Below, one piece after another: positions 331 to 19,884 of a DNA stretch of 64,000 nt. The position numbers and the translations under genes are program-made. The notes beneath the pieces are model-generated. The model ran no database searches and was not told the origin of the DNA. It was given only the letters and a program-made list of their open reading frames with translations. Source of the DNA: Minisyncoccota bacterium (GTDB lineage: Bacteria; Patescibacteriota; Minisyncoccia; Phycocordibacterales; XYD1-FULL-46-19); the NCBI GenBank assembly GCA_040879645.1, contig JBBDJY010000013.1, positions 30,366 through 94,365 on the forward strand, in the 5' to 3' direction. Numbering within the stretch: the stretch's first letter is position 1; each line of letters begins with the position of its first letter.

Positions 331-352
331 ATATAACTCTTAGAACTTAATT

Positions 353-610: not shown

Positions 611-611
611 A

Positions 612-1709: not shown

Positions 1710-1946
1710 AATATAAGAATAAAAAATATTTTAAAAAACCTTTATTACTATTAGAACTGTTAATTCGGTGTATAACCGGAATTTAACCTGTGTTTTGATA
1801 ATAAATTCATATTCATGACTTGGGTATAAAGTTGGTAATAATCTTTGTTTTTAATTTTACTGTTTTTAGGTGGGGAAAAGTACCTACTTTATCAACAAGT
1901 TAATTCCTTAGATATTATTAGTTTATACACAGATTAATCCTTAATT
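1710..1946. promoter_or_regulatory. dnaA-dnaN intergenic region, candidate oriC or DnaA-box region
   Basis: 237-nt AT-rich spacer with a TTATACACA site (one mismatch to the TTATCCACA consensus) at about 1927..1935. dnaA-dnaN spacers are a common oriC location. Confidence 0.3.
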
Positions 1947-3308: not shown

Positions 3309-3492
3309 AAAATTTATTTATTTGGCGAGTTTTTAATTTACCTTTAAATTATAGTCCAGTACTGTATTATAACAAACGTTTGCAGACTGTTAATAACCAG
3401 TGGATTACTTCTTAAATTATATTTTTTACGAATAATATTAAATTATAAGTCAAGGTTGCTAAAAAAATCCTTTTATTATATGATACTGATTA
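3309..3492. promoter_or_regulatory. rpmH-dnaA divergent intergenic region; AT-rich candidate DUE/oriC and promoters
   Basis: 184 nt, very AT-rich, lying between the divergent dnaA and rpmH genes. There is no perfect DnaA box, only a degenerate AGTGGATTA. Confidence 0.3.
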
Positions 3493-3627
3493 ATGTCAGT
3501 AACCTACCAACCAAAAAAACGAAAAAGGAAGAAAACTCACGGTTTTTTAGTTAGAGCTAAAACCGCCACCGGCCGTAATATTTTAAAAAACCGCCGGCGA
3601 AAAGGCCGAAAGAAATTAGCGGTTTAA
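3493..3627 (+). CDS. rpmH: 50S ribosomal protein L34
   Basis: Hand translation gives [44 protein letters not shown] (44 aa), a classic L34. It is missing from the ORF track because it is under 60 aa. The conserved rpmH-rnpA-yidC order is preserved. Confidence 0.9.
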
Positions 3628-3644
3628 TTGATTTTGATCAAATA

Positions 3645-3971
3645 ATGATTCCCCAAAACCGGCGAATCGGTAAAAGACTGATTGAACAAGTTATTAAAGA
3701 TGGTAAAAGTCTTTATTCTCCTTATTTAACACTAAAAATCCTTCCGACTGAGGGCCCTAGTTTATGGGGTTTTGTTGTTTCTAAAAAAGTCAGTAAAAAA
3801 GCGGTTGAACGCAATTTTATTAAACGGCGAGCCCGCTATATTGTTAGAAAAAATATAAACAAACTGGCTGACGGTTATTTATATGTTATGATATTTAAGC
3901 CTGAAGCTCGTCATTTAACCTTTAATGAATTGGAACAGGAAGTGGTTAAATTATTGCCGATAAACAAATAA
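3645..3971 (+). CDS. rnpA: RNase P protein component
   Basis: 108 aa with the basic RNR motif FIKRRARYIVRKN. The gene follows rpmH. Confidence 0.9.
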   Translation: MIPQNRRIGKRLIEQVIKDGKSLYSPYLTLKILPTEGPSLWGFVVSKKVSKKAVERNFIKRRARYIVRKNINKLADGYLYVMIFKPEARHLTFNELEQEVVKLLPINK

Positions 3972-4017
3972 TTGATTAATTTGAATTTTTAAAATCTCCC
4001 TCTAATTAATAATAAAA

Positions 4018-4761
4018 ATGGTAGCTCTATTTAATTTAATCCTATTTAATCCGCTTTATAATGCTTTGGTGTTTATTACCGACATTATCCCCGGTAATAA
4101 TATTGGCGTAGCAATAATTATTTTGACGATTATTGTTAAAATAATTTTATTTCCCTTATACCATAAATCGGTTAAAACCCAATCTAAAATCAAAGAAATT
4201 GAGCCGGAACTTAAGTCTTTGAAAAATAAATATAATGACGATAAGCAAGAACAAGCCAAACAAATAATGGAGCTTTATCGCCATCACGGTATTAATCCTT
4301 TTGTTTCCATTGTTCTTTTATTTATTCAATTGCCGATATTTATTGCCTTATTTTATGTCTTTTTTCGGGGTTTTGAATTAAATTTAGATATCTTATATTC
4401 TTTTATTCCCCCACCGGCGGTAATTAATACCGAATTATTCGGTTTATTGGATATCGCCGAAAAAAGTTTTATCCTCGCTTTATTGGTTGGTGGAGCCCAA
4501 TTTATTCAGATGAAATTTTCTTTACCTCCCCTGCCGCCGATTGATCGGAATAAAAAAGAAAGATCAATTAAAGATGATTTTGCCCGCAGTTTTAATATCC
4601 AAATGCGCTATATTATGCCGATTATTATTGTCTTTATCGCTTCATCTTTACCGGCGGCTGTCGGTCTTTATTGGTTAACCAGTAATTTATTCGCCATTGG
4701 TCATGAATTACTGGTTAAACGAAAAGCTTTAAATATTTTAACCGGACGGTCAATCACTTAA
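4018..4761 (+). CDS. yidC: Membrane protein insertase YidC/Oxa1 family (short form)
   Basis: 247 aa, multi-TM, follows rnpA. It has the conserved C-terminal amphipathic and basic region seen in short YidC proteins. Confidence 0.85.
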   Translation: MVALFNLILFNPLYNALVFITDIIPGNNIGVAIIILTIIVKIILFPLYHKSVKTQSKIKEIEPELKSLKNKYNDDKQEQAKQIMELYRHHGINPFVSIVLLFIQLPIFIALFYVFFRGFELNLDILYSFIPPPAVINTELFGLLDIAEKSFILALLVGGAQFIQMKFSLPPLPPIDRNKKERSIKDDFARSFNIQMRYIMPIIIVFIASSLPAAVGLYWLTSNLFAIGHELLVKRKALNILTGRSIT

Positions 4762-4821
4762 TTAATTGATGGAAGTTTGGAATTTTTCCAGATAGGATTA
4801 GAATATTCCGGAACGCCAATA

Positions 4822-4906: not shown

Positions 4907-6145
4907 CTAATAGCGCAAAAATACCGACCATAAACTGCCGTCTTTTTTATTCTGCCACCAAATCATATTGTCTTTAACTTTTAGATTAACAACATCCAAA
5001 TTACGGTTAATAGAAGTTAATCTGAATAAAGTCGAGTCGTCAATGATATAAACCCAAATATCATCATTGGGAAAAGATATTTTTCCTTGATACCACTCGT
5101 CGGGATATTGACCGGCACTGATTCTTTCGGACACACCGCAATAAATGGCACCGGCATCGTTTTGCCAAACACATTTATCGGTTAAGGTTTTTATCGCCAG
5201 TGTTTTTTCCGTTCCGGTGTCTAAATTTTTTAATTTTAAATTAAGGTTATTACCGGCGCTTTCCGAATACAATAATTGCTTACCGTCGGGACTAGGTAGA
5301 GCGGTTAAACCGCTTTTATTACTCAAAATCTTATCAGTCATTTCCCGATTAAGATCCAATGAATATAAATTACGCGACAAAGACCAAGCCGGTGGTTGGC
5401 TTAATATAATTGACCCGGTACCGGCCCAACTTGCCTGCCAAGACAATAAACCGGTTCGCCAGACCTGGCCGGCACCGCTTAAATCCGGATTAGCCACCAG
5501 ACCGACAACATCATCGTTAAAGCGTTTTAAATAAAAGATTCGGCCAGTCTCACGATTAATCGCCGGTTGGGCGAGAAAATTGGATTGACGGCGGACAAGG
5601 TTATTTTTTTCAGTCTCGCCACTAATCGCTTCAAGTGGAATATTGATAGAGGTTATAACCCCATCCCGATCTTCAATAAAAGCGTAGAGATGGTTGGTAT
5701 CGGTGGTAAACAAAACCGACAGCGGATTAGCAATAGTGGTATTGGATATTCGTTTAAAGGTTAATTCTTCATCAGTTAAATCGGCGGTATAAATATGGCC
5801 GGTACTTTGTTCGGCATAAACCAAATAATCATTATCACTAATAGTGATTAATTCGTAACCGGCAATTGATTCATCGATGATTTTTTCCGGGGTGGCAATA
5901 TCTTCCGTTTCGAGGTTGTTGGTTGGAGTGGAAATGGTTTGGCCGGCATTATCACCTTCTCGGCCGGTGAAAAAATCAAATAAATTACCAACCGGGAAAA
6001 ATCCCCGATCGTCCCCCGTCTCGCCACTTGGTGTTGGTCGGGAGATTAAATAAAAACCAATCCCGGCCGCGATGACAATTAAAATAATTAAGATGGTTAA
6101 AGTTTTTTTCATATTAAAATTCAATATGCCAATGGTCTCCTTCAT
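4907..6145 (-). CDS. Membrane-anchored TolB-like (PD40) beta-propeller protein; last gene of the T4SS-like operon
   Basis: 412 aa with an N-terminal TM anchor. Repeated SPDGKQLLYSE...NLDTG-type motifs are typical of TolB/PD40 propellers. Confidence 0.5.
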   Translation of the reverse strand: MKETIGILNFNMKKTLTILIILIVIAAGIGFYLISRPTPSGETGDDRGFFPVGNLFDFFTGREGDNAGQTISTPTNNLETEDIATPEKIIDESIAGYELITISDNDYLVYAEQSTGHIYTADLTDEELTFKRISNTTIANPLSVLFTTDTNHLYAFIEDRDGVITSINIPLEAISGETEKNNLVRRQSNFLAQPAINRETGRIFYLKRFNDDVVGLVANPDLSGAGQVWRTGLLSWQASWAGTGSIILSQPPAWSLSRNLYSLDLNREMTDKILSNKSGLTALPSPDGKQLLYSESAGNNLNLKLKNLDTGTEKTLAIKTLTDKCVWQNDAGAIYCGVSERISAGQYPDEWYQGKISFPNDDIWVYIIDDSTLFRLTSINRNLDVVNLKVKDNMIWWQNKKDGSLWSVFLRY

Positions 6146-6995
6146 AAATTAACCTATTCCCATTTATTCCCAAGTCACCCAATCCTCCTTCAGCGATAGT
6201 TCTATTCATAAAATTATCAAAATTATTAGTTGACCTAATATCAACCGCCGTGCCGGTATAATGGTTACTTCCAACCGAGTGACCACCTTGTTCGCCTGCG
6301 CCGGTAATGACTATCTCACAATTACATTCTTGACTTAATCCCACTACTCCATTTATTTGATTTTGATTTAAATTGCCGACATATGTTCGGCAGGCGGATA
6401 AATTATCAGGCCGGCAAGCACCTTCATCGTTAATTAAAATTCCTCTCCTTTTTAACCTATTTCTGACTTCAAATTCATTACTCGGAACCGGGCCATACAC
6501 TCCTTCTCCTAATGATGATCCATCTCCGGGTATGGCGGTAATATCGTCTTGTCCACTAGACCCACTACCGGTATTAACTGCCACATCGGTTGATATCGTG
6601 CCGGCTCGACCGCCGAAATCAAGTGATAAGTTTATTAAATTAGGGTTAATGGTATTTAAGATAAGCCAGGCGGTTAAGGCGATTAATAAGCCGAAAAAAG
6701 CGGCACTCATTCGGCTTTTGGCATCGGCTTTAATCCCCGGAATCCCGCTAACCATATATTCAATACCGGCCCAGGTAAAAATAACTATCGATAGAACAGT
6801 GGCAATGACCAAAATGGTGGTAATGGCCGCCGCCGCATAATCCAGCAAATTACTCGTCTCGCCTTCACTCCCCCCAATTACTTCCGGCTGGAGTAAAACA
6901 TAATCCTGGGCCAAAGCCGGTATCGCCACCAATAAACCGGCAAAAAACAAGCCGATAAACAGATAAGGAATCATTTGTTTGGTGGTTTTTTTCAT
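6114..6995 (-). CDS. Membrane-anchored peptidase M15 (VanY-like D,D- or L,D-peptidase) with an N-terminus of VirB2/TrbC pilin-like topology
   Basis: 293 aa. A signal peptide (...AIPALAQD) is followed by two TM helices separated by a short charged loop. The C-terminal domain carries the LAS-metallopeptidase motifs SNHYTGTAVD (SxHxxGxAxD) and EGDHWH (ExxH/HxH). Confidence 0.6.
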   Translation of the reverse strand: MKKTTKQMIPYLFIGLFFAGLLVAIPALAQDYVLLQPEVIGGSEGETSNLLDYAAAAITTILVIATVLSIVIFTWAGIEYMVSGIPGIKADAKSRMSAAFFGLLIALTAWLILNTINPNLINLSLDFGGRAGTISTDVAVNTGSGSSGQDDITAIPGDGSSLGEGVYGPVPSNEFEVRNRLKRRGILINDEGACRPDNLSACRTYVGNLNQNQINGVVGLSQECNCEIVITGAGEQGGHSVGSNHYTGTAVDIRSTNNFDNFMNRTIAEGGLGDLGINGNRLIYEGDHWHIEF

Positions 6996-6998
6996 TGA

Positions 6999-8018
6999 TT
7001 ATTGTCCAAAAAATTCATTAAGGTTTAAATTAACCGAGGCTTGGCCGGTTTGTTTGGGATTTCTTGGATTATTAACCTCAACGGATATTATTGATGACCC
7101 GGCTGAAGATTGGTTGGTTTGGAAGGTGATTTCTCTTTGGCGGCTAGAAATATCTTTAATTACTTCCTCACCGGCTTTCCAAATATATTGTAGTTGAGAC
7201 AAAACATCATTAATTGGGAAATAAAACGGTTCGGCTTTAAGTGAAATAACATCGCCCTCGGCTTGATGGTTTTGATTATTTAAAACCTTGGCCTGATTAA
7301 CGCCACTTAACGGCTTAACCTCATATAATAAAATCTCGGCTTGATTGGCGTTAATGGTTAAATTACCACTGGCGGTAATCCCGGATGAAGGATGGCTTAC
7401 TTTGACGCCGACGACCGCTCGCTCGGTTTCGGGATTAAGTGTAAAAGTGATGGTATTTCGACCGAGACCGGAAGAACCGGTTAAGCGAGTATTGTTTCTC
7501 GTCCATTCAAAAACCAATTCTCGAGCGTCAATTAATTGGTCAAAAACCCTGATATTCGGCTCGGCCATAACCGTCAGTAAAGAGCCGGCCGTCGGCAGGG
7601 CCGCTCCTCGGTACCAGTTTGGAATGAAAGAATTTGCTTCAAACAACAATTCAACCTCGGCCGGCCGGAAAGTCAGATTTTTGACAATAAAACGATTATC
7701 CGGGGTGGTAATAATGGCATCAACCGAAGTTATCCAACCAACCCGACCATTGCGGAAGGAAAATTCAGCCAAGCCGATACCCTCGGCCAAAACCTCGTCA
7801 TTAACCGCCCAAGTTACCTTACTTAAATTAAGATTAAAACCAAAACCTTTTAATTTGACGGTAATCATTTCATTGGGTTTTGGCTCTTTCGGCTTGACTT
7901 CGGCCTCCAGAGTTCCGCCAACGGTACTTTCTTGGTAATTAGCCGAAGCGATGACCGGAAAAATCCACAAGATTAAAATAATCAGCAAAACGATTTTATT
8001 TTTTAAGATATTGGTCAT
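6999..8018 (-). CDS. Secreted or membrane-anchored all-beta protein, hypothetical (possible VirB8-like channel component)
   Basis: 339 aa with an N-terminal hydrophobic anchor and a beta-rich remainder. It sits inside the T4SS-like operon. Confidence 0.45.
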   Translation of the reverse strand: MTNILKNKIVLLIILILWIFPVIASANYQESTVGGTLEAEVKPKEPKPNEMITVKLKGFGFNLNLSKVTWAVNDEVLAEGIGLAEFSFRNGRVGWITSVDAIITTPDNRFIVKNLTFRPAEVELLFEANSFIPNWYRGAALPTAGSLLTVMAEPNIRVFDQLIDARELVFEWTRNNTRLTGSSGLGRNTITFTLNPETERAVVGVKVSHPSSGITASGNLTINANQAEILLYEVKPLSGVNQAKVLNNQNHQAEGDVISLKAEPFYFPINDVLSQLQYIWKAGEEVIKDISSRQREITFQTNQSSAGSSIISVEVNNPRNPKQTGQASVNLNLNEFFGQ

Positions 8019-8053
8019 TACTCTATTTTAAACTAATTTGTCCGGATAAGGAA

Positions 8054-8398
8054 TCATTTGGCCCCGGTCAGCGCTTTTTTAAATTTGGGCTTGGCTGATA
8101 AGGATAAACCGGTTTTGTCTTCAGTCCGGGTAAAAATAATGACCGCGATGACGCCGGCGGTAATGCCGGGTAGAAAAGGGATAATCGCCAATACCCCGGC
8201 GGTGAGGTAAGTCAGCATTTTTCTGGTACTGATTAAGGGAATATTTTTTAAATAAAACCAAAAACCGAAAACCATAAAAGCGGTGGCGGTGGTGATAAGG
8301 TTAACAATGGGAATTAAGGCAATCAAGTCAATTAATAAAGCGGTGACAATCATTCCGCTGGCGGATAATCGACTGATGCGGTAAGTGGTTTCAGCCAT
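8054..8398 (-). CDS. Small integral membrane protein, hypothetical
   Basis: 114 aa with a long N-terminal hydrophobic hairpin, a second TM and a basic tail. It ends 6 nt after the VirB4 gene. Confidence 0.45.
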   Translation of the reverse strand: MAETTYRISRLSASGMIVTALLIDLIALIPIVNLITTATAFMVFGFWFYLKNIPLISTRKMLTYLTAGVLAIIPFLPGITAGVIAVIIFTRTEDKTGLSLSAKPKFKKALTGAK

Positions 8399-8404
8399 AA
8401 TTGT

Positions 8405-10237
8405 TTACTGACTGTTATTAAATTCGTCCTTGGCTTTTTTAATCGCCAGAAGTTGCGACGGATCGGAAGTGATAATTTGATCTTCGGTATAAGAAGCAAT
8501 GATTTTAATCGCCACTCGTTTCAGGCCGGCAAAAAAGATACCCTCACCGACACTTGATTCCAATAATAGAAACTTTTCTTCCTCGGTTAAATTGAAAGTC
8601 TTTTGCACCAAGTCAATGGTGGCCGGTGATTGCTTTAAAATGAGTTGAATTGATGAGTTGGTGATAATCGGCGTACCGTAAGGCGAACGGAGGAAATCAC
8701 CGACATCCTGGGTAATGGTCGCCACCCCCAAAAAGTATTTTCGGCCGCGTTTAACCAAAGAAAAGAGAAAAGAAGCGGTATCTTCTTGTTTCATCATCCA
8801 CCAAGCCTCATCAACCACCAAGAGGCGTTTTTTTAAGTTGCGTCGGATAGTATTCCAGATATGATGCATTACGATATACATTGCCACCGGTTTTAATTCG
8901 TCTTCCATATCTCGGACGGAAAAAACAACCATATTTTTATTGATATCGACATTGGTCGGCCGGTTGATAAAACCGGACCAAGTGCCTTGAGTATATTTAC
9001 CCAAGCGCTGGGCCAAGGACTCCCCGCCTTCCATTCCGGCCAAGACCAATTCCAAGTCGGACAAAAGCGGTGCCGGTTTGTTGGTAAAATCGGAATCGGC
9101 GGTAATATCTTTTAAGGCGTAAGTTTCGGTAATCGCCCGGTCAATGATTGAATCTTCTTCGGCTGACAATCCGCCGAGCATAATACGGAATAAGCCGACC
9201 AAGGTGATGGTGTTTGACCGCAAAACATCAGCCGGCGACTCGTCTTCGCGCGGGAAGGGTAAGTCAAAAGGATTGATATGGTGTTCGGAGGTCAGTGAAA
9301 CATTAAAATAACGCCCACCAACGGCTTCGGCTAAAAATTCGTATTCTCGTTCCGGGTCAATAACAATGACATCGGTTTCGTACATGAGACTGCGCAAAAT
9401 TTCCAACTTGGTGGCATAAGATTTACCGGCGCCGGATTTGGCAAAAATGACCGAATTGTAATTTTCCAACGAGAAGCGGTCAAAAAGCACCAATGATGAA
9501 TTGTGGCGATTAATACCGTAAAGAATTCCCTTATTGGAAGTCAGGTCAAAAGAAACAAACGGAAACAGACTAGATAGTGGTGAGGAGTTTAATTTGGAAT
9601 TTATCCCCAAAAGATCTTTGGCGATGGGAATCGTGCTCTTGAAACCGGCTTCTTGTTGGAATAGGGCCGGTTTTAAATAAACCAATTTGGAATCCAAGAT
9701 TGATTTCAGATCCGATTCGGTATTGTCCAAATCATCTTCATCTTCGCCATAAATGGTAACATATAAACCGACATCAAAGATTTTTTCTTGAGCTTGTTGG
9801 AGTTGATTACGCAAGTTTTCAATGTCTTCATGGGCGGTGTCCAATTTAGGGTCTCGAACATAACCTTTTTCTTCCCGGATACTGATTTGACTTTGGACTT
9901 CAGCCAGTTTTTTTTGCAATTGCTTTAAAGCCAAACTGGAATCAATCGGGTGGATAAAAATAGACACATCAAAAACCCGATCCAAGTTAATCACCGGCGA
10001 AAACCACTCCTCGTTTAAGAAACGAGGATAAGAGATAACAAACATCGTTCGGGCCATTTTTTCGCCCAAATTAAGGTTTTTTGGACTGATTTTAAGGGCC
10101 GAGGGAGCGATAATATCACGCAATTGCAAAACTCCCATCTCATAGATGTCTTGCGGTAAGACCGGGGTGATAAATTCCTCGGCCTGTGATTGTTTTTTTC
10201 TGCCGAATAAAGCCATATTAAGTGGCGCTCGGGACAT
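8405..10237 (-). CDS. VirB4/TraC/CagE-family T4SS ATPase, C-terminal 610-aa part
   Basis: Walker A GAGKSYATK, Walker B LLVVDEAWWM (the DEAW motif of VirB4), and a CagE_TrbE_VirB-like N-terminal region (YPRFLNEEWFSPV). Confidence 0.85.
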   Translation of the reverse strand: MSRAPLNMALFGRKKQSQAEEFITPVLPQDIYEMGVLQLRDIIAPSALKISPKNLNLGEKMARTMFVISYPRFLNEEWFSPVINLDRVFDVSIFIHPIDSSLALKQLQKKLAEVQSQISIREEKGYVRDPKLDTAHEDIENLRNQLQQAQEKIFDVGLYVTIYGEDEDDLDNTESDLKSILDSKLVYLKPALFQQEAGFKSTIPIAKDLLGINSKLNSSPLSSLFPFVSFDLTSNKGILYGINRHNSSLVLFDRFSLENYNSVIFAKSGAGKSYATKLEILRSLMYETDVIVIDPEREYEFLAEAVGGRYFNVSLTSEHHINPFDLPFPREDESPADVLRSNTITLVGLFRIMLGGLSAEEDSIIDRAITETYALKDITADSDFTNKPAPLLSDLELVLAGMEGGESLAQRLGKYTQGTWSGFINRPTNVDINKNMVVFSVRDMEDELKPVAMYIVMHHIWNTIRRNLKKRLLVVDEAWWMMKQEDTASFLFSLVKRGRKYFLGVATITQDVGDFLRSPYGTPIITNSSIQLILKQSPATIDLVQKTFNLTEEEKFLLLESSVGEGIFFAGLKRVAIKIIASYTEDQIITSDPSQLLAIKKAKDEFNNSQ

Positions 10238-10892
10238 CCCGTTCGCCCGGATTAAAGACTCGGAAATATAATTCGACCAGTTCTTCAGTCCCTAAAATGG
10301 CGGTATTAACGCCAAAACGGCTTAAACCTTGTTCAATGACGCTCATCCGCTGTTCCAATTGAATCTTGTTTTCTTCAAACGGATCATCTCCTTGGTCGGT
10401 TTTTGGCCGATCTTTTTTCCGGCCGAATGGTAATTTAGCCCAAAGTGAGTTGCGGTCTTGGAAAATCGGCGGTGAATAAGGAATGACGATGAAAAAATTT
10501 TTAGTCATTACTTTGGTTGATTGGGTAAAACTTTTGATAAACTCCATATATTCCCGGGTCTGAATTTTAATTAAATCATTGGTTTGGTTTTTTAAGCGTT
10601 CTTCAATCAGTTTCAAATATGGCCGAATATCCAATTTGCGTGATTGGATGAATATTTGGATGTCAAAATCCAAAGAATTAAGAAAATTTTGATATTGCAT
10701 AATAATCGCCGTTTGTTCGTCACTGGATTTAAGAGAAAAGTTAAGCGAGGAGGCAATCATCACCGCCCGAAAAGAACCGTCATTCAAGATAACAACCTGA
10801 TCGCGTATTTCTTTGATCGAGGTGAAGTCTTGGGTTGCTTTAGTGGTTTTATTAGCCATTATTTTACCTTTTCTTTTACATCTAAATTCCAA
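10218..10892 (-). CDS. VirB4-family ATPase N-terminal domain fragment (split or frameshifted gene)
   Basis: The 224-aa ORF overlaps the next ORF by 20 nt in a different frame. ILNDGSFRAVMIASSLNFSLKSSDEQTAIIMQYQNFLNSLDFDIQIFIQS matches the N-terminal domain of Gram-positive VirB4/TraE-like ATPases. Confidence 0.6.
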   Translation of the reverse strand: MEFRCKRKGKIMANKTTKATQDFTSIKEIRDQVVILNDGSFRAVMIASSLNFSLKSSDEQTAIIMQYQNFLNSLDFDIQIFIQSRKLDIRPYLKLIEERLKNQTNDLIKIQTREYMEFIKSFTQSTKVMTKNFFIVIPYSPPIFQDRNSLWAKLPFGRKKDRPKTDQGDDPFEENKIQLEQRMSVIEQGLSRFGVNTAILGTEELVELYFRVFNPGERDVPSAT

Positions 10893-11263
10893 GATAGGTC
10901 TTCCAACCGGCTATTCGACAGTCGGGGCAGGGCCGGCTCATTACTGTTTTCTTTATTTCCGCCGACACTTTTGGTTTTAATTTTTTCTGATTTTCGCCAG
11001 ATATATAATTTAGCGGTGAGTAAGTAACGGAAGAACATTTCAACCACATGAATAAACGGTCGGTTGTTAACTTGGTAAAAAGCCAAAGCCAAACCGAAAG
11101 CGATAATTATAATCATCGGGATAATGGCCAAGTAAATAGGTAATAACGCGTAGAAAATAAAAGCCAAACCGCCACTACCGGCCAGGTAGAGAAATTGTTT
11201 AAAAGTTAGGGGGCCGAAGATTCGGTCCTCAATCTCAATAAATTGTGGCACTTGAAAATTCAT
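10859..11263 (-). CDS. PrgI/VirB3-like small membrane protein
   Basis: 134 aa. MNFQVPQFIEIEDRIFGPLTFKQFLYLAGSGGLAFIFYALLP followed by two TMs matches the PrgI family. It lies immediately upstream of and overlapping the VirB4 gene, as in Gram-positive T4SS. Confidence 0.6.
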   Translation of the reverse strand: MNFQVPQFIEIEDRIFGPLTFKQFLYLAGSGGLAFIFYALLPIYLAIIPMIIIIAFGLALAFYQVNNRPFIHVVEMFFRYLLTAKLYIWRKSEKIKTKSVGGNKENSNEPALPRLSNSRLEDLSWNLDVKEKVK

Positions 11264-11376
11264 TACCCGATACGCTTAATTGTAGCATTGATTGAAAACG
11301 GACTCAAAGCAAAATCGCCTGACAATACCCGATAATCGACGGTTTTTAATTAAAGTCCACCGGCTTTTCTTGTCGA

Positions 11377-11988
11377 TTACTCCAACGGTTCTTTATAGGG
11401 GTCTTTTTCTATCCTTTCTTTGGATAAGGCCAAGTTATCGGTATCACCATCATTTTGTTTTTCGGTTTTGTCTGGGTTTTCTTCGTCTTCAATATCGGCC
11501 CGCCGATTGGTAAATAACGAACTCATTTTTTCAGCAAAAATATCCCGCCGATTTTCTTCTCCACTTTCGTTTTCAGAAGGTTTTTGCTTGTCCCCGGCTT
11601 CTTTTTCAACTTCTTTGTTTTCCGCCGGTGGTTCGGCCGGCGGTGTCGCCACTGTCGGGTCTTCGACTTCAAAACCGCGGACTTTTTGTAAAGAATCTTT
11701 AACCGGTCGGAAAATTTTCTCGTCTATTTCTTTGGCAATTTCTCGGGCCAGATCATTGGATATATGTAGTCGGCGAGCCAAGTTGCCGATATATTGCCCC
11801 GGTCGAGTTAGGCCCATCATTACCAAGCCGGTTTCTTCGGCCAACTCACCCATTTGGTCCACATGCAGGTGGTGCTTGACGCTTGCCTGACGGATAATGT
11901 CAGCCGTTTCGACGGCGACAATGGCGTCTTTCAAGTCCGTCGGTAATTTTTTAAAGACTTCATCTAATTGTTCTTGAGTGTAGTCCAT
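11377..11988 (-). CDS. Hypothetical protein with a structured N-terminal about 100 aa and an acidic disordered tail
   Basis: 203 aa, no TM, C-terminus rich in E, D and K. Part of the operon. Confidence 0.45.
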   Translation of the reverse strand: MDYTQEQLDEVFKKLPTDLKDAIVAVETADIIRQASVKHHLHVDQMGELAEETGLVMMGLTRPGQYIGNLARRLHISNDLAREIAKEIDEKIFRPVKDSLQKVRGFEVEDPTVATPPAEPPAENKEVEKEAGDKQKPSENESGEENRRDIFAEKMSSLFTNRRADIEDEENPDKTEKQNDGDTDNLALSKERIEKDPYKEPLE

Positions 11989-12004
11989 ATGATTGATTTG
12001 ATTA

Positions 12005-14623
12005 TTATGAATTTCCTAAGTCGGTTGGCGGGTTCTTTTTCTTGGCTTTCCGCGCCGCGCCGGCGGTACTCTCGAGATAAGCTCTAGCTTCCGGCATGCC
12101 GTTACCGGCTAGAATTTCCTTCTCGACTTTACCCCAAGTCCCACGGGAAATCCCCTCTCCTTGAGTGGCGGCTCTTTGAATGGCGGCGACATCCTCTTTG
12201 TTTAAGAGTTTGATGACCGCTTCATTTTCCAAAATTTGACTGTCGAGGGCCGCCACTTGTTTACTGCTCAGTTCATTTAATTGCGTGGTCAATCGGTTTA
12301 AGTCGATTGGCGCTCCGTCATTTTGATTTCTGATGGATTCCCCGATGCCATCCATAGCTTGGCGGACAGTATCACTTACTCCGACTTTTTTCATTTCGGT
12401 CACCAGTTTATTTTGGTCTTCAGCCGACAAAGAATATTTAAGACCGATATCTTTATTGGTTGTTGGATCAGCGGTTTCTTTGGTAATTTCTTCGGCCGCT
12501 TCCAAGTAGCCGGGTTCAACTTTTCTAGCGCCGGCGGTTATTTCTGTTTCCAATCCGGCCCGATCAGTATTACTTAAGTTGCCATATAGAATTTTGCGAT
12601 CGGCCGGATCCAAGGATACATAGAATTTACCTCGCTCTTCCCGATTTCCTTTATCTTGATATTCTCGTTTAAAGCGATTACCGATTTCTTTTTCTATGCT
12701 GTCTTTCTTTTCTCCCTTTAATCCTTGACGCAATTCCGTAAGGACATTAACCAATTCGGTATTACCCGATTGGCGGGCGGCCATTTCCATATCCGCCTTT
12801 TCGCGATCAGGTAGTCCTTCATACATCTTCTTTCGATCTTCTTTACCGCCAATCATTAAGAGTTTTTCACCAACATTCTTTAAGTACTCGGCCTTTTGTT
12901 CCGGATTCATACCCTTGGTGGTCTCCATTCTCCTTTCTTGGCGCTTCTTAAGGCGGTCTTCATAAGAGGTTTCGCCACCGAACTTCAGGCCGGCCGTCTT
13001 TTGAGCGGTCTTTTTGACTAAACCGCCGATAACCGGACTCTTGGCCGCCCAAGATTTGAGTCGATCTGAGCCGGCAATTTTATTAGCCGTTTTGCCGGCG
13101 GTATAGACACCGGCACCAGCAACAGTACCTATTCCGGCTTTCTTCCCCCACTTTTTTGAACGATCAACAGCAAAACCTTTAGCCCAACTCCCGCCGTGAG
13201 CACCGAGTTTGGAAGCGATGATAATCGCCGCTAAGAGAAAGCCGACGAGGAAGATGAACATAATAGTGTCTTGCAAAGCCCCACCCCAACCTTCGCTTGC
13301 GGCCATAATGTCATGGCGATTATCGGCAATTTTCAAAGTAATGAAAAGCATCACCATAAAGACCGGCGCGAATATCGCTTGATTAGTTAATTCTTTAACC
13401 CATTTGTCAAAAGTGTCCCCTTTCAATTTTGGTATGACATAACCGACAAAAGCCAAAGGTGCCAAGATAATTAACAGGAGGAGAATTATAGTACGGATGA
13501 TGAATAAAACGGCGGCGGCAAGAATAACCAAAGTGGTAACGATTATCAAAATAGACGAACCGAGTGCGCTGATAATAACTTTATCAAAACTCAAACCGCC
13601 GGTTTGACCAAAGACGGGCGCTTGGCCGGATTTAGCGCCAACGAATTGACTAGGACCGACACCGGTAATAAAAATAGCACTAATATCCGGCGCAGTGTTT
13701 CCATCTGTTTCTGTCCCGATATTATTGTAAAAAGAAACGGAAATAACATTGGAAACATCAATCACCACGCGAGTCAGGACGGCGCTAAAGTTGACCAAGA
13801 GGGCGATGATAATGATATGGCCGATCATTTTTTTGGCTTGGCCGCTGTTGATTTGCAAAATGGTGCTGATGGCGATATAAAGGAGGATAAAAATAAAAGC
13901 GATATTGGCCAGATCGCGGACCATCCGCCAACTTTCGGCGACAAAAGTCATATCAGCCAAATCTTTGAAATTAACGATTGATAATTGAATACTCCAATTA
14001 AAAAGTATGCCGGCGAAATCAAGGGCCAAACTTAAAAGCCATAAAGTTAAAGAGGCCAGCCAGGCGACTCCTTCAGTGATACAAGCTCCAATACTAAAAT
14101 TCGTCAAATTGGTGCAGGTAGACACCCCATCTCTCCTTATTTGATCAACAGCCGCAGTGCTTCCGCTCCAATCATCTTGGCGAACAGTAGATAAAGCTTG
14201 GTTGTTTTCCTCTATTTTTTCTCTAAAATCCTCTATGTTTTGTTGAAGTTCAGACAATCTTTGTTGTTCTTCCGAGGTGGCGGAGCGATTTTCTGCCGCG
14301 ATTTGTGATTGGATTGTTTCAATTTCATTTTGATTTTCTCCTAGCAACCTATTTAATTGCTCGTCGAGTCGTTGGTGCATCTCCTCTACTTCTTGGATAC
14401 TTTCTCTGTCCCGAAATATAGCGAGAAGAGGTCGATCAAACACCATGCCTATCATATAGTCGTCCGCGGTAAGTACCATATCCCAGATATCTCCCCAATT
14501 AATAAAAGCGGATGCCGGAATTGGTGCCGACAGAGTCAATGCCAATAAGGCAATAATTACTACCGTTTTTAAGTTTCGGCGGTTAATTGCCGAGAGTAAT
14601 TTCTTTGGTGATTGGATCGCCAT
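12005..14623 (-). CDS. Large polytopic membrane protein, VirB6/TrbL-like candidate
   Basis: 872 aa. A signal or TM is followed by a coiled-coil ectodomain, then at least 6 TM helices, then a long charged cytoplasmic tail. This architecture and operon context fit Gram-positive VirB6 analogues. Confidence 0.5.
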   Translation of the reverse strand: MAIQSPKKLLSAINRRNLKTVVIIALLALTLSAPIPASAFINWGDIWDMVLTADDYMIGMVFDRPLLAIFRDRESIQEVEEMHQRLDEQLNRLLGENQNEIETIQSQIAAENRSATSEEQQRLSELQQNIEDFREKIEENNQALSTVRQDDWSGSTAAVDQIRRDGVSTCTNLTNFSIGACITEGVAWLASLTLWLLSLALDFAGILFNWSIQLSIVNFKDLADMTFVAESWRMVRDLANIAFIFILLYIAISTILQINSGQAKKMIGHIIIIALLVNFSAVLTRVVIDVSNVISVSFYNNIGTETDGNTAPDISAIFITGVGPSQFVGAKSGQAPVFGQTGGLSFDKVIISALGSSILIIVTTLVILAAAVLFIIRTIILLLLIILAPLAFVGYVIPKLKGDTFDKWVKELTNQAIFAPVFMVMLFITLKIADNRHDIMAASEGWGGALQDTIMFIFLVGFLLAAIIIASKLGAHGGSWAKGFAVDRSKKWGKKAGIGTVAGAGVYTAGKTANKIAGSDRLKSWAAKSPVIGGLVKKTAQKTAGLKFGGETSYEDRLKKRQERRMETTKGMNPEQKAEYLKNVGEKLLMIGGKEDRKKMYEGLPDREKADMEMAARQSGNTELVNVLTELRQGLKGEKKDSIEKEIGNRFKREYQDKGNREERGKFYVSLDPADRKILYGNLSNTDRAGLETEITAGARKVEPGYLEAAEEITKETADPTTNKDIGLKYSLSAEDQNKLVTEMKKVGVSDTVRQAMDGIGESIRNQNDGAPIDLNRLTTQLNELSSKQVAALDSQILENEAVIKLLNKEDVAAIQRAATQGEGISRGTWGKVEKEILAGNGMPEARAYLESTAGAARKAKKKNPPTDLGNS

Positions 14624-17600
14624 TGTTGGTTGTACACCTTAACTGGTAATTGGTTTTTGGTTTGATGGTAATTGTTCCCGTCGTCGGCCGGAAATTAAAA
14701 AGGTATTTATTGAATTCATTCCTCTGAATAGTGTTTTCGTTAGTGGAACTGATGGTATTATTAATTGTTTGTTTAAAAGTCTCCACCATCCCGGCCTTAT
14801 CTCCGCCGTCTGCGTGAATTTGGATGGCGACGGAATAGGGATCTCTGGCTCCGGCTGAGGTTGAGTTGGCATTGGGGCCGAGAGCGATCCTAAAGGTGTC
14901 ATTACCTTGGATATCATCAGGCATGGTAATGGTCGTTATTTGATGACTGCCGTCATTGGCTGATTGGGAAATTACCGTCCCGGTAACAATTCGAGTGATA
15001 TCACCCGGTCTTTCTCGTAAAAAGTTAACACCGAAATTAAGCGGTAGAGTTATTTCTCTTTCTCCATTACTATCCAAAGTTTCACCATCGGTGACAATCG
15101 GAACAATCCCCGATCCGGTCGGATTACCGGCCGGCCAATTGTTATCGGCAACACAAGTGTCTATGCCTTGCCCTTCCCAGTTTAACACGGCGATGTTGTT
15201 GCCGGCGGCAATTTGATTGGCCGTCGGTTTGGCGATATTAAAAGTCAGTTCGGGTGCGGTGTAAGTTTCGCGATTACGCAATGATGATAAAACATCAAGA
15301 ATTCTCTGAATCATATCGCCGGCTCCTCCACCACCGGCGGCGGCGGCCGGACTGCCTCCCCCCCCACCGGTGCTTTGCGGTTTAAAACTCAAGACCTCTT
15401 GAGCGGTTGGTTCATTACCCGGCGCAAGATCACCCGGTTCGGGGTCGGTATAGAGTTCTTGTCGATAACTGAAAGCATCGGCCACGCTCTCTTTAACTTG
15501 AATTGCCGGCGTGGTAATTTCCCATTTGGCACAAGCTCCACTTGCTGTGGGTTCAATACAGTTTCTGATTGGTAGGTACCCTTGACCGGCGACCAGTTCA
15601 TTACGGAAGTTTTCCTCGGCCTGTCTTTGGCGCAAACTCAAAGCTGTTTGATTAAGCATAAAAGAGGTGGCCGGATTGTTGGCCTCAAACGGATTATTGA
15701 TGGCAATTAAGTTTTGGAAAACATCAGCGGAACCGGTATTGCCGGAAACAAAATTATTGTAAACTTCTCGGCTAATACTTGAGCGTGGAATGTCCGGTTG
15801 GCTGATTTGTCGGCGCAGGGCGGCGGCGGTTTCGGCCTTGAAAGCATCTCCCGATTCTTCTCCTTCGAGTTGGTCTAAATAGACTTGATTGGTTTCCGGT
15901 TGGATAACTTCTCTTAGATATCTTTCGGTGTCGGTAACATAGAGGGGCGATTCGGTACCTTCGCCATCAGTTTTGTGCCCCCGGTCGACCAAGTCGGCCA
16001 GTTCATGGCGGTATTGTTCAATATTACTGGCCGCTTGCCGGCGTAAATCGGGATTTTCCATTACCTCTCTTTGTTCGGCCGCCGTTTGGATGCGTTGGAT
16101 GGATTTTAGATACATACACATCTGGACAGTTAATTCCTGGATACTTTTAGTGCTTTCATCAATATTTTGATTGCTGGACAAAAGCGGACCGTCAACTTCT
16201 TTAACCGGAACATATAGACCACCACCTAAGCCGGGAATTAAATTAAGACCGGGAAGAGATAAACCGCCCAGTCCGCCGGTTAGGGCTTCAACCGCACCGC
16301 CAACCGCTTCTCCCAGTGGACCGGTTAAAGAACCGAGGTTTAATCCCCCGAGAACATTTTCGGTCATACTGCCTAAAGCGCCATTAAAAGCTTCACCGAC
16401 ACCGCCCAAGACATTATTAAAAACGCCGGTTACCGGATCTAATACCGTCCCCATCACCGAATCAACCACCTCATTTAAGGGGTCCAAGACCGTCCCCATG
16501 ACCGAATCAACCACATCATTCAGAGGCGCTAAAACACTGCCGGTAACCTGATTAATTAGACCGTTGGCCGAGCCTAAAAGCGAACCGGTTAAGTCATTTA
16601 CCGTTGTGTTTATAATATTACTGAATTGATTATTAACTCCGGCCATCAGTTGATTCATATTGGTCCCGCCCAAAATCTCGGTGACCGCTTGATTAACAAA
16701 ACCACCAGCCGAACCGCCAATCGAACCATTACCCAAGCCTTGGCTTAGTTGGGCAACAATCTCGTCAAGTGCCCCGCCGTTATCTTCCAGGACGGTGGCT
16801 AATTGTTCGCCGAATATACCGGTAAAATCTTCAGTCAATAAATTGTTTTGATTGTTGATACTGGCGACGGCTTGGGTGGATATTTCCGCCAATAAATCGT
16901 CATTTAATTGCTCCAATACTTGAGCGGTTAGGCCGTCAAGGCCGGCGGTTTCAGTAGTTAGAAAATCAAGGGTAGTTGCCGACAGGTCACGATTGAGAAT
17001 TTCCGGTAAATCCGTTTCAATCGCCCCGGGTAAATTTTCAGTCATCACTCTCTCCAGGGCGGTCGGCAACCCTTCTTCCAAAACACGGCCAAAAGCATCG
17101 GGTAAAGCTTGGTTAAGGGTTCGTTGCAGGGCATTGGGTAAATGAGTTTCAACTGAAGTGGTAAAAGTATCGCGGAATATTTGTTCAAAAGTTTCGGCGT
17201 CGATTGTTTGCCCGGGATTTAGATTTAGATTAGCGGCCAGGGCTTCTTCAAAACTCGGTCGGGTGGCCGTACCGAGACGAAGAAGGCGGGATAATTGATC
17301 CGGTAAATTGTTCTGAATTCCCCTCTCCAGTTCGGCCGGTAATCTTTCGGTTACTTCTCTCTCCAATTCAGCCGGTAAATGTTCATTAACCGTTTCTTGG
17401 GTGATGGTGGCCAGCCCGTTATGAGCGGCTTGACCCAGGGCCCCACCGACTTCACCACCGCCACCTAAGCCGGCTTGGGCTAAACACTCTTGCCGGTCCT
17501 CGTTTTGTAATTGCTCAATATAATCGGCTTCACTCTCCAGGGCTTCTTGGTCGGTGCCGGTCCTCTCTTCCAAACTTGGCATCGTTTCCAGATGTTGATT

Positions 17601-17723
17601 AGGGTCTTCCTCTTGGGCAAAAATATTTCTAACCGAGTCATTGAATACCGAGTAATAGATGAGGCCGGCACCGGCGCTTACCACCAGGGCGGTGATAATC
17701 ATTTTTTGTTTGGTCAGATTCAT
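14583..17723 (-). CDS. Giant secreted or surface protein with LPxxLxR tandem repeats and Gly-rich repeats
   Basis: 1046 aa with an N-terminal TM or signal. About 11-aa periodic LPAELER/LPNALQR/LPTALER motifs, repeated DVVDSVMGTVLDPLNE units and Gly-rich linkers. Overlaps the downstream gene by 41 nt. Confidence 0.6.
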   Translation of the reverse strand: MNLTKQKMIITALVVSAGAGLIYYSVFNDSVRNIFAQEEDPNQHLETMPSLEERTGTDQEALESEADYIEQLQNEDRQECLAQAGLGGGGEVGGALGQAAHNGLATITQETVNEHLPAELEREVTERLPAELERGIQNNLPDQLSRLLRLGTATRPSFEEALAANLNLNPGQTIDAETFEQIFRDTFTTSVETHLPNALQRTLNQALPDAFGRVLEEGLPTALERVMTENLPGAIETDLPEILNRDLSATTLDFLTTETAGLDGLTAQVLEQLNDDLLAEISTQAVASINNQNNLLTEDFTGIFGEQLATVLEDNGGALDEIVAQLSQGLGNGSIGGSAGGFVNQAVTEILGGTNMNQLMAGVNNQFSNIINTTVNDLTGSLLGSANGLINQVTGSVLAPLNDVVDSVMGTVLDPLNEVVDSVMGTVLDPVTGVFNNVLGGVGEAFNGALGSMTENVLGGLNLGSLTGPLGEAVGGAVEALTGGLGGLSLPGLNLIPGLGGGLYVPVKEVDGPLLSSNQNIDESTKSIQELTVQMCMYLKSIQRIQTAAEQREVMENPDLRRQAASNIEQYRHELADLVDRGHKTDGEGTESPLYVTDTERYLREVIQPETNQVYLDQLEGEESGDAFKAETAAALRRQISQPDIPRSSISREVYNNFVSGNTGSADVFQNLIAINNPFEANNPATSFMLNQTALSLRQRQAEENFRNELVAGQGYLPIRNCIEPTASGACAKWEITTPAIQVKESVADAFSYRQELYTDPEPGDLAPGNEPTAQEVLSFKPQSTGGGGGSPAAAAGGGGAGDMIQRILDVLSSLRNRETYTAPELTFNIAKPTANQIAAGNNIAVLNWEGQGIDTCVADNNWPAGNPTGSGIVPIVTDGETLDSNGEREITLPLNFGVNFLRERPGDITRIVTGTVISQSANDGSHQITTITMPDDIQGNDTFRIALGPNANSTSAGARDPYSVAIQIHADGGDKAGMVETFKQTINNTISSTNENTIQRNEFNKYLFNFRPTTGTITIKPKTNYQLRCTTNNGDPITKEITLGN

Positions 17724-17749
17724 TTTTAAAATAATTGATGATTCGGCAA

Positions 17750-18478
17750 TTAATCGTTATCAGAAATTATGCCGATACTGTCATAAATTTGGGCGGTTTC
17801 GTCTTTATTAAACATTATACCTTTTTTGGTAAAATAAACATTAATTCCTTCCACAGCTTGAAAAAATAAAGCGTAATTTTTAATATAAGCCTCGGCACTT
17901 TCCAACGCCAAAATCGGTTCGTCAAAAATAGCGCTCATATTATCAAGATTAATGGTTAATTGATGGATATTATTCAGTAAGCGTAAGTGGACAACTTGAG
18001 CGTCTTTTGGGATGGCTACTTGGCGGAGTTCATTTACCACCAATTCATTTAATTCTTTGGCTTTTACCAAGTTAGTCAAAAGTGATGGTTGAGACAGTCT
18101 GACGGCTTCCAACATTAAAACAATTTCGTTGTCGCGAGGCGCTTGATAGCGGTTTAAGATTTGGCCCATTTCCCGTCCGTATTGACGGAGGGTTTCGTCA
18201 TTGGAATTTTCAATAATATTAAGATCGGCCACGGTAAAATGAGGCCGGTTAAGGTTATCCTCAATGTCTGACAATTCCAGTAAGACGCCTTTGGCGGCCA
18301 AGTTTTTGGTGATTAAAGACTGTAAATCCCGGTCTTCTTTGATTAATTGAGCGTAATAATCCAGGCGCTCGGCTTCCCGCTTTTTTTCGGCCAAACCGCC
18401 AACCAACCAAAGCAAAATACCGCCGATTAAAACAATCAACAGCAATGACCAAATAATGATTTTTATTCTCATCACCAC
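17750..18478 (-). CDS. N-terminally membrane-anchored protein, hypothetical; first gene of the operon
   Basis: 242 aa with a single N-terminal TM and the remainder probably extracytoplasmic. Confidence 0.45.
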   Translation of the reverse strand: MVMRIKIIIWSLLLIVLIGGILLWLVGGLAEKKREAERLDYYAQLIKEDRDLQSLITKNLAAKGVLLELSDIEDNLNRPHFTVADLNIIENSNDETLRQYGREMGQILNRYQAPRDNEIVLMLEAVRLSQPSLLTNLVKAKELNELVVNELRQVAIPKDAQVVHLRLLNNIHQLTINLDNMSAIFDEPILALESAEAYIKNYALFFQAVEGINVYFTKKGIMFNKDETAQIYDSIGIISDND

Positions 18479-18600: not shown

Positions 18601-19416
18601 ATGAAAAAATTTGTCGGTTTTTTGTTTCTGGTGCTTGGTTTTTTAATCTTGGGTCAAACGGCCGAAGCGTTTTTAACTCGTGACCTAACGCTTGGTAGTC
18701 GGGGTGAAGATGTTCGCCAATTGCAAAAATTCTTAAACCGATCTGGCTCCCCGGTGGCTTCAGTCGGCCCCGGTTCACCGGGACAAGAAACGGCTTTTTT
18801 CGGCCAATTAACCAAACAAGCGGTTCGTCGCTATCAAGAATTGCATCAGGCGGAAATTTTGGCGCCGATTGGCCTCGCCACCGGCACCGGCTATGTCGGC
18901 CGGCTGACTCGGAGGCAGATTAATTTGGCGGCCGATTTCGCTGACCATCAGCCGGTGACCGATACGATAACTCCGTCGCCGGATAGTTCGGAGCCGGAAA
19001 TCTTGGTGACCGAACCGCTCGTTTCCAGGGCCAAAACGAATGAGCCGACACCAAAATCGGTGTCGGCTGAAACTTCCGTCTTAAATAATAACCTGACCCC
19101 CGACTTTTCTCTTCCTTCACCACCGCCAAGATCGGCCACCATGAGTCTATTCTTAGTCAACCCTTCAACCGGTCGACCGGGAACAATGGTAACTATTGCC
19201 GGCGAGGGTTTTGATACCAAAGCCAATACCGTCTATACCGGTAGTGAAGTTTTGTCGGCCATACCGTCGGCCGATGGTCAAAGTCTGACCGTGACAATTA
19301 ACAGTCCTTTTACCGGCGAAGCTGATCCCGAGGGTTTTGATTTACCCCTGCGTCTTTATGTGGAAAATGATACCGGCATCAGTAATCCGCTTATTTTTAA
19401 TTTAGTTTTTGATTAG
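18601..19416 (+). CDS. Secreted protein with a PG_binding_1-like peptidoglycan-binding domain and a C-terminal IPT/TIG-like domain
   Basis: Signal peptide present. LGSRGEDVRQLQKFLN...FGQLTKQAVRRYQ matches the putative PG-binding repeat. Confidence 0.55.
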   Translation: MKKFVGFLFLVLGFLILGQTAEAFLTRDLTLGSRGEDVRQLQKFLNRSGSPVASVGPGSPGQETAFFGQLTKQAVRRYQELHQAEILAPIGLATGTGYVGRLTRRQINLAADFADHQPVTDTITPSPDSSEPEILVTEPLVSRAKTNEPTPKSVSAETSVLNNNLTPDFSLPSPPPRSATMSLFLVNPSTGRPGTMVTIAGEGFDTKANTVYTGSEVLSAIPSADGQSLTVTINSPFTGEADPEGFDLPLRLYVENDTGISNPLIFNLVFD

Positions 19417-19497: not shown

Positions 19498-19884
19498 ATG
19501 ACTAAAACACTTTTCAGCTTATCGGCGATTATTTTATTTACTTTTTTTCCGCTTACCGCTTTGGCGCAATCGGCCGGCATTCCTTTCGGTGGGCAAATTA
19601 TTGCACCACCTATTCCTTGTACTTGTCCCTTTACCCCCGGAGTACAAATTATTATCAAACCGGCTTTACCGGCTTGGCCGACGCACTTGGTGTATTTACC
19701 CGGTGTCAGTATTTTATATCAGTACTACCAAATCTTTCGTCCCGGCCCTCATTTGCTTGGTTTGGTTGCGCCGACACCGGTTCCTTGTTTAATGGTGGCA
19801 CCCCCGCCGTTTTTTTGTCGCCCGCCTTTGGCTCCATATTTACCGGCCGGTTTGCCGATTATTATGACCGGTACTTCACTTTAA
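19498..19884 (+). CDS. Small secreted Pro/Cys-rich protein, hypothetical
   Basis: 128 aa with a signal peptide and Pro-rich composition. Confidence 0.4.
   Translation: MTKTLFSLSAIILFTFFPLTALAQSAGIPFGGQIIAPPIPCTCPFTPGVQIIIKPALPAWPTHLVYLPGVSILYQYYQIFRPGPHLLGLVAPTPVPCLMVAPPPFFCRPPLAPYLPAGLPIIMTGTSL

Follow-up and report, generated by a model that had tools for sequence, protein, structure and literature searches.

A probable Patescibacteria-type type IV secretion system beside the replication-origin genes of a Paceibacteria genome

We analyzed a 64,000-nt stretch (the window) of contig JBBDJY010000013.1, which comes from a metagenome-assembled genome of Paceibacteria, and in which eleven adjoining open reading frames (ORFs) lie on the minus strand at 4907-18478, between yidC and a divergent gene at 18601 (+). 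Counted from the yidC end, the ORFs encode proteins of 412, 293, 339, 114, 610, 224, 134, 203, 872, 1046 and 242 aa. The locus is very probably the Paceibacteria version of the Patescibacteria clade's type IV secretion system (T4SS), that is, a vertically inherited descendant of an MPF-FATA conjugation machine that has no link to a relaxase or to DNA processing. The system is already known, having been described between 2023 and 2025 (PMC12102498, PMC10633639, PMC12857230), and the interpretation given in the original prediction, which was made from the nucleotide sequence, is right and not new.

Starting at the 412/293 junction and ending with 1046/242, the eleven genes are spaced by -32, 3, 35, 6, -20, -34, 113, 16, -41 and 26 nt, so that the predicted packing (gaps of 35 nt or less, or overlaps, with one exception of 113 nt) was exact. 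The sole large gap separates the gene of the 203-aa protein from the PrgI gene, and alternative start codons reduce two of the overlaps, those of the 224-aa and the 412-aa ORFs. The last gene of the cluster, encoding the 412-aa protein, is convergent with yidC (+), beyond which lie rnpA, rpmH, dnaA and dnaN. The 113-nt gap holds the only TG-extended sigma-70-like match of the scanned region, TTGAGT-17-TACAAT at 11279-11307 (-). This match hints at a possible internal promoter for the PrgI-TrsD-VirB4 part, in a scan that was unenriched overall.

The 610-aa protein (8405-10237, minus strand, as are all genes of the cluster) is a VirB4 ATPase of the MPF-FATA/CD1110 type. It matched NCBIfam NF045971 (conju_CD1110, 'VirB4-like conjugal transfer ATPase, CD1110 family') with 378 bits against a cutoff of 325, aligning to positions 185-733 of the 752 in the profile. 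Matches in the PDB were 4ag5, the VirB4 C-terminal domain (3.7e-42), and TrwK (5e-7), and Pfam returned P-loop_TraG (7e-25), AAA_10 and DUF87. The Walker A motif GAGKS is at aa 269 and the Walker B motif DEAW at aa 476; together these matches confirmed the VirB4 call that had been made from the two motifs. For comparison with relatives, one genome per GTDB species was scanned, at least 565 VirB4 relatives were found, and the best 80 were compared; counts out of 80 below are from tblastn of the window proteins against these 80 loci. The best 80 relatives are all from Patescibacteria, mostly from Paceibacteria lineages, with 73-82% identity. The clade position of this VirB4 is thus read from sequence similarity, by its best 80 relatives and by MPF-FATA CD1110 as its best curated family.

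The ORF that precedes virB4 (10218-10892; 224 aa) had not been named in the original prediction and is TrsD-like by its NCBIfam matches. It aligned to positions 98-233 of VirB4_plasma, the mycoplasma-type VirB4 model (E 2.8e-10), and to positions 12-117 of the CD1110 VirB4 model (E 2.6e-5), and it matched TrsD NF041427 at E 1e-5 with 25.5 bits, below the cutoff of 200. Since these alignments fall on the N-terminal positions of the VirB4 profiles, the protein appears to be the N-terminal part of VirB4 encoded separately. It was detected in 78 of the 80 loci, where identity is about 55% and 37 alignment columns are invariant; a PDB profile search with the family gave no significant match. Judging from the N-termini of its orthologues, the true start is probably the ATG at 10859, giving 213 aa. 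In the TrsD frame 5' of this ATG a MEFRCKR / ESRCSRKD string is kept (loci L001, L003, L031, L063 and L066; 10860-10892 in the window), sometimes interrupted by a stop. The string is nucleotide conservation at the junction of the PrgI 3' end and the TrsD start, and may mark a region of translational coupling.

The 134-aa protein (10859-11263) belongs to the PrgI/VirB3-like family (Pfam PrgI PF12666, E 3.1e-10, above cutoff). Its hydrophobic segment at aa 24-66 is long enough for a hairpin of two transmembrane (TM) helices, and the protein was detected in 73/80 loci at about 50% identity. The family had been predicted correctly, but the gene is not immediately upstream of virB4 as claimed; it is two genes upstream, with the TrsD-like ORF between. 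A fusion of the 203-aa and PrgI genes was looked for and none was found. The locus therefore holds a VirB4 ATPase and a VirB3/PrgI-like partner, two of the five components by which T4SS membership was judged; the others are a VirB6-like protein, a VirB8-like protein and a cell-wall hydrolase.

The 872-aa protein (12005-14623) has an N-terminal coiled coil, at least six TM helices and a hydrophilic C-terminal region of about 400 aa, and was detected in 64/80 loci. The TrbL/VirB6 family PF04610 matched 9 of 46 aligned family members (the window protein plus 45 orthologues; best E 1.9e-10), and the family profile weakly matched TrwI (E 0.64). Through the membership of its orthologous family, we assign the protein as an extended VirB6-like translocon protein; the PF04610 matches in orthologues and the TM segments thus support the polytopic VirB6-like protein that had been proposed. 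A VirB8-like role for the 339-aa protein, which had been considered as well, was rejected, as the predicted fold consists of three tandem immunoglobulin (Ig)-like domains.

A pilin is encoded by the next-to-last gene. With its signal peptide and pair of hydrophobic helices, the 293-aa protein (6114-6995) matches Pfam T4SS_pilin PF18895 (E 1.1e-6, above cutoff) and is VirB2-like. Its C-terminal domain carries H-x6-D and H-W-H residues that are invariant within the subfamily, and the profile of this domain matched only Hedgehog N-domains in the PDB. It is reasonable to read the domain as a LAS/M15 'Hedgehog/DD-peptidase' fold and as a putative zinc peptidase, which would be an analogue and not a homologue of VirB1. 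Thus the predicted M15 cell-wall peptidase is plausible as a fold call, through its motifs and the Hedgehog matches, but the domain is not a membrane-anchored enzyme of its own: it rides C-terminally on the PF18895 pilin. The C-terminal passenger of the pilin varies among species. The LAS motif is found in 14 of 57 orthologues, and the rest have different C-terminal extensions or none; where the pilin lacks the LAS motif, no separate LAS ORF was found nearby. In about 20 species the orthologue consists of the pilin only and is 120-190 aa long, whereas in the others it measures 250-520 aa (L001-L079).

The remaining proteins are predicted to be mostly at the cell surface. The 339-aa protein (6999-8018) is predicted by structure modeling to be exported, with a signal/anchor helix followed by three tandem Ig/fibronectin type III (FnIII)-like beta-sandwich domains. 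A search with the single sequence retrieved only the protein itself, and homologues were found by profile queries. With E<=1e-3 as the limit there were 4,171 cluster representatives, and with E<=1e-30 there were 2,352. Among the best 150 matches length is uniform, almost all being 313-378 aa (about 330 aa), and the family has no Pfam model. The 412-aa protein (4907-6145; 401 aa from the NCBI start at M12) was modeled with AlphaFold2 (pLDDT 76) as an N-terminal membrane anchor, a disordered linker and a beta-propeller. Foldseek matched the model to TolB, WD40 proteins and oligogalacturonate lyase among many propellers, so that the TolB-like propeller proposed earlier is supported as a predicted fold; by sequence, PD40/TolB matches were marginal, and Pfam on the orthologue set gave nothing useful. 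The protein was detected in 61/80 loci, which is nearly all loci that have the flank.

Two proteins at the start of the cluster appear to be fast-evolving from their sequences. The 242-aa bitopic protein (17750-18478), the product of the first gene, has one hydrophobic segment, an N-terminal TM helix, and was detected in 25/80 loci at about 26% identity; nevertheless, an N-anchored ORF of 230-350 aa occupies its slot, upstream of VirB6, in nearly all loci. It had no Pfam or PDB match, and Pfam of the orthologue set and a PDB profile search also gave nothing useful. The 1046-aa protein (14583-17723) is a giant N-anchored surface protein with a single N-terminal TM helix, eight LPxx[L/F/I]x[R/T] motifs (LPxxLxR type) within aa 116-245, a repeat region rich in G/L/V/N and a C-terminal region rich in T/N. 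It had no Pfam or NCBIfam match and was detectable by sequence in only 11/80 loci, but an N-anchored ORF of 320-1200 aa fills the slot almost everywhere. The 203-aa protein (11377-11988) is acidic (24% D+E) and soluble, with no TM helix, and was detected in 50/80 loci. In the alignment of its family, conserved columns mark an N-terminal domain of about 100 aa and, after a disordered acidic linker, a C-terminal D-P-Y-x-E-P motif. This short tail may serve for docking; neither the PDB nor Pfam gave a match, the orthologue set included. The 114-aa protein (8054-8398) is a small polytopic membrane protein with two long hydrophobic segments and no Pfam family match, and a small ORF with at least two predicted TM segments is in the same slot in 38 of 61 loci. 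The claim that the accessory proteins lack described counterparts stood for the 203-aa protein, which matched no family, but not for the Ig-like exported proteins and the Hedgehog/DD-peptidase, which have counterparts in the Saccharibacteria T4SS locus.

The origin gene set lies at one end of the window: dnaN at 612-1709 (-), dnaA at 1947-3308 (-), rpmH at about 3494-3627 (+), rnpA at 3645-3971 (+) and yidC at 4018-4761 (+). These genes were identified from their translations, with rpmH read from the sequence, and their Pfam labels were obtained on the same genes in an independent assembly (L081). A synteny comparison showed that essentially every one of the best 80 loci with enough flank keeps the order PcrA-KsgA-(DUF192)-[242-1046-872-203-PrgI-TrsD-VirB4-(114)-339-293-412]-yidC-rnpA-dnaA-dnaN. 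The predicted fixation of the cluster beside the replication-origin genes is therefore shared among the relatives. Because both the position and the gene order are kept, we conclude that this is a vertically inherited chromosomal system and not an integrated conjugative element (ICE), and the dnaA-adjacent synteny likewise supports the earlier proposal of a chromosomally domesticated machine instead of a mobile element.

Neither a relaxase nor a VirD4/TcpA-type coupling protein (T4CP) domain was found when Pfam was run on the window's 52 main ORFs (all those from about 100 aa upward that do not lie inside a larger one), which bears out the absence that had been reported, nor was either found in the 10 kb beyond dnaN. 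Thus the two hallmarks of a conjugative element were not seen: a relaxase and T4CP linked to the cluster, in the window and the 10 kb beyond dnaN, and a variable location, among the loci with enough flank. None of the eleven proteins matched type IV pilus, Tad or type II secretion families (PilB/GspE-type ATPase, PilC, class III prepilins), and a possible assignment to an unrelated system such as a type IV pilus or Tad set was thereby not borne out; a T2SSE ATPase about 6.7 kb beyond dnaN is in a separate locus. The 10 kb beyond dnaN was read from an independent Logan assembly of the same sample, and encodes PBP1, TyrRS, RuvCAB, the T2SSE ATPase, TsaE and PolA.

The other genes of the window are housekeeping genes: KsgA, PcrA, an M23/LysM peptidase, ComM, PNPase, a Xer-like recombinase, the CCA-adding enzyme and tRNAs, and also RNase Y, ClpP, trigger factor, NusA and two MurA genes. 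An Rfam scan of the window gave four tRNAs and nothing else. Wall-related secreted proteins flank the cluster and could be additional accessory factors. They are a divergent PG_binding_1 + TIG protein at 18601-19416 (+), which adjoins the cluster in 14 relatives, a proline-rich secreted protein of 128 aa at 19498-19884 (+), and an M23 + LysM peptidase at 23350-24345 (+). At the other side of the window, adjacent MurA (EPSP_synthase-family) paralogues at 58344-59675 and 59844-61148 differ in GC content (about 0.49 vs 0.33), and a sulfotransferase lies at 61214-61990; the second MurA copy may have been acquired laterally.

The origin genes form an AT-rich trough of about 5 kb. Over positions 1-4800 of the window (dnaN, dnaA, rpmH, rnpA and yidC) the GC content is 0.27-0.34, compared with 0.43-0.47 in neighboring genes. 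We considered that the break from 27% to 45% GC near 4.8 kb might mark a chimeric contig, and rejected this: the independent Logan assembly has the same junction (L081 4800-9600) with GC back to about 0.40-0.46 just beyond dnaN, and the dip is seen in relatives. In 45 of 48 related species the GC content of VirB4 exceeds the dnaA/dnaN mean, with a median difference of +0.058, a maximum of +0.21 and a median difference in GC3 of 0.11. Transcription of the T4SS operon, and of most genes as far as about 37 kb, is directed towards dnaA, an orientation kept in all relatives, and the operon would be head-on to a fork coming from a dnaA-adjacent origin. The minimum of the cumulative GC skew in the window is near 36-38 kb and not at dnaA, and a search for DnaA boxes gave no clear cluster (22 matches vs 15 expected).

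How might these parts work together? The evidence above shows what the core parts are, that no T4CP or relaxase lies nearby and that the synteny is deep; how the machine assembles, what it carries and in which direction we infer as follows. The split VirB4, made up of the TrsD-like protein and the 610-aa ATPase, would dock at the membrane by way of PrgI/VirB3 and the extended VirB6 translocon. Powered by the ATPase, the VirB2-like pilin would be extracted and polymerized to form a filament or conduit at the surface, and the LAS-type peptidase, which is on the pilin in this genome, could open the peptidoglycan locally. The triple-Ig protein, the anchored propeller and the 242-aa and 1046-aa surface proteins would make up the extracellular, host-facing part. 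Most likely the machine would serve contact-dependent exchange with a host cell. Export of proteins or effectors, or pilus-mediated engagement of the host, is favored over DNA transfer, and conjugation is very unlikely.

Several points weigh against this reading of the locus. The window's own 872-aa protein has no direct Pfam or VirB6 match, and its link to VirB6 runs through orthologues. A VirB8-like component was not found, the 339-aa protein being judged by fold and the 242-aa protein by sequence match only. The peptidase assignment depends on motifs and on weak E-values of about 0.02. That the eleven ORFs form a single operon is suggested by their spacing, and scans for sigma-70 promoters and terminators, which showed no enrichment over shuffled sequence, were uninformative. 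A T4CP may exist elsewhere in the genome, the search having covered the window and the 10 kb beyond dnaN. Finally, the substrate, the effectors and the transport direction cannot be read from sequence, and a 2024 perspective (PMC11665869) calls the role of this T4SS 'completely unknown', with effector delivery or uptake proposed.

One alternative is that the machine imports DNA or nucleotides, like ComB of H. pylori or the archaeal Ced system, to feed an auxotrophic epibiont. Import is a candidate role in PMC11665869 and was raised in the original prediction too; the lack of a relaxase or T4CP nearby would fit it, as would a partial CedB-family match on VirB4 (E 1.3e-10, about 80 aa). However, the CedB match is limited to the shared P-loop segment and reaches 40.5 bits compared with 378 bits for CD1110, and Pfam and NCBIfam revealed neither ComB-type partners nor any specific to Ced (CedA, CedA1/2). 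In Southlakia epibionticum (Saccharibacteria), moreover, comEC-dependent DNA uptake is dispensable but the T4SS is essential, which separates the T4SS from ComEC competence and is no proof of import through the T4SS. We regard uptake as unlikely. We consider it slightly less plausible still that the locus is a system for adhesion and envelope remodeling only, in which VirB4 powers a VirB2-type filament and adhesins and nothing is translocated. The many surface proteins (pilin, triple-Ig protein, propeller and giant repeat protein) and the lack of a coupling protein in the window speak for it, and PMC12857230 points to a potential for conjugative pili. Yet the strongly conserved VirB6 translocon and PrgI/VirB3 seem to be more than a filament would need, and Patescibacteria already have type IV pili for adhesion and motility (PMC12857230, PMC11665869), although sequence alone cannot separate adhesion only from the host-exchange machine that we prefer.

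A degenerate ICE that came to lie beside dnaA by chance would account for the conjugative (MPF-FATA) ancestry of the VirB4, PrgI, TrsD and VirB6 set and for a tyrosine recombinase at 34653-35558. The recombinase is, however, 16 kb from the cluster among housekeeping genes, the cluster does not differ in GC content from the 45% GC genome around it, and the tRNA genes, four in number, are at 37-42 kb, away from the cluster borders. The cluster has the same chromosomal position in about 80 species whose VirB4 proteins are 73-82% identical, with the housekeeping flanks kept. PMC12102498 also reports relaxases in just 103 of 3,035 Patescibacteria genomes. On the synteny and the domain scans we rejected the ICE remnant, which is extremely improbable.

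Taken together, the window holds no new principle, but it offers a clean, fully syntenic Paceibacteria example that is annotated component by component. What is mildly new is the modular passenger of the pilin, the large triple-Ig family, the propeller and 203-aa families, which are conserved yet unnamed, and the AT-rich trough; none of these changes the classification. We raise, tentatively, the possibility that a Paceibacteria-specific extracellular module sits on the shared T4SS core as a host-contact structure without a described counterpart. Equally speculative is its make-up: a passenger-swapping pilin (LAS here), the triple-Ig family, the anchored propeller and two hyper-variable N-anchored proteins. 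If this were true, passenger swapping and hyper-variability would reflect adaptation to host range. Few machines are known to be essential for epibiotic life in this huge and uncultivated radiation, the Patescibacteria T4SS being one of them, and the unnamed accessory families (triple-Ig, propeller, the DPYxEP-tailed 203-aa family and the pilin-passenger fusions) could guide structural or cryo-electron tomography work on how the cells reach their hosts. In metatranscriptomes of Paceibacterales enrichments, T4SS pilins rank with the most strongly expressed of the extracellular proteins whose function is unknown (PMC10936435).

The closest published description is that of Quinonero-Coronel et al. 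(2025, Microb Genom; PMC12102498), who surveyed 3,035 Patescibacteria genomes. According to that paper, the VirB4 proteins form a monophyletic clade nested in MPF-FATA; TrsD, PrgI/VirB3, VirB6 and PF18895 pilins are encoded near virB4, the TrsD homologue being the most abundant T4SS component; most genomes have VirD4/T4CP homologues, mostly far from virB4; and the vicinity of virB4 is enriched in dnaA, dnaN, rnpA and ksgA, above all in Paceibacteria and Microgenomatia. Our locus agrees in having an MPF-FATA-related VirB4, a TrsD-like protein and PrgI upstream of it, a VirB6, a PF18895 pilin, no relaxase nearby and dnaA, dnaN, rnpA and ksgA adjoining. The marks of the clade in gene content and neighborhood are thus present, namely a TrsD homologue, PrgI and a PF18895 pilin near virB4 and the four chromosomal genes nearby, and the 224-aa ORF corresponds to the 'TrsD homologue' of that study. 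Nothing essential differs; as far as we could see, that paper does not name the fusion of pilin and LAS peptidase, the family of triple-Ig proteins, the anchored propeller, the acidic 203-aa protein or the two fast-evolving first genes.

The T4SS of S. epibionticum (SEML1_0006-0019), which is beside dnaA-dnaN, is essential for epibiotic growth by transposon sequencing (Wang et al. 2023, Cell; PMC10633639). In the supplementary annotation of that study, virB4 has Ig/FnIII-type exported proteins and a Hedgehog/DD-peptidase domain next to it, and an array of pilins, one NTF2-like protein and a pair of VirB6-like proteins are listed as well. Both loci are origin-proximal and share the order VirB6 - PrgI - TrsD-like - VirB4, PF18895 pilins, the lack of a relaxase or coupling protein in the locus, and Ig/FnIII-type exported proteins together with a Hedgehog/DD-peptidase domain downstream of virB4. 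In S. epibionticum, however, six pilin genes form an array on the opposite strand, whereas a single pilin with a passenger domain is encoded here. S. epibionticum further differs in having two VirB6-like proteins, an NTF2-like (VirB8-type) protein and a lysozyme/cysteine-protease protein, and no beta-propeller. Essentiality was shown in that organism, whereas our cluster is known from its genes alone.

The monoderm MPF-FATA systems (CTn2/CD1110, pGO1 Trs and pCF10 Prg) resemble our locus in the CD1110 VirB4, the TrsD-like, PrgI and VirB6-like proteins, a cell-wall hydrolase in the operon (putative here) and the lack of an outer-membrane core complex. Unlike these elements, our locus is not on a mobile element and no relaxase, T4CP or oriT was found nearby. 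Its hydrolase is of the LAS type by motif, whereas those of MPF-FATA are SLT/CHAP, and its VirB4 falls about 140 residues short of the 752-position CD1110 profile, with the N-terminal region on a separate protein. A VirB2-like pilin is present here but absent from Gram-positive systems. A FEMS review of 2025 (PMC12857230) already describes the Patescibacteria systems as new and distinct within the T4SS superfamily, with the potential to elaborate conjugative pili.

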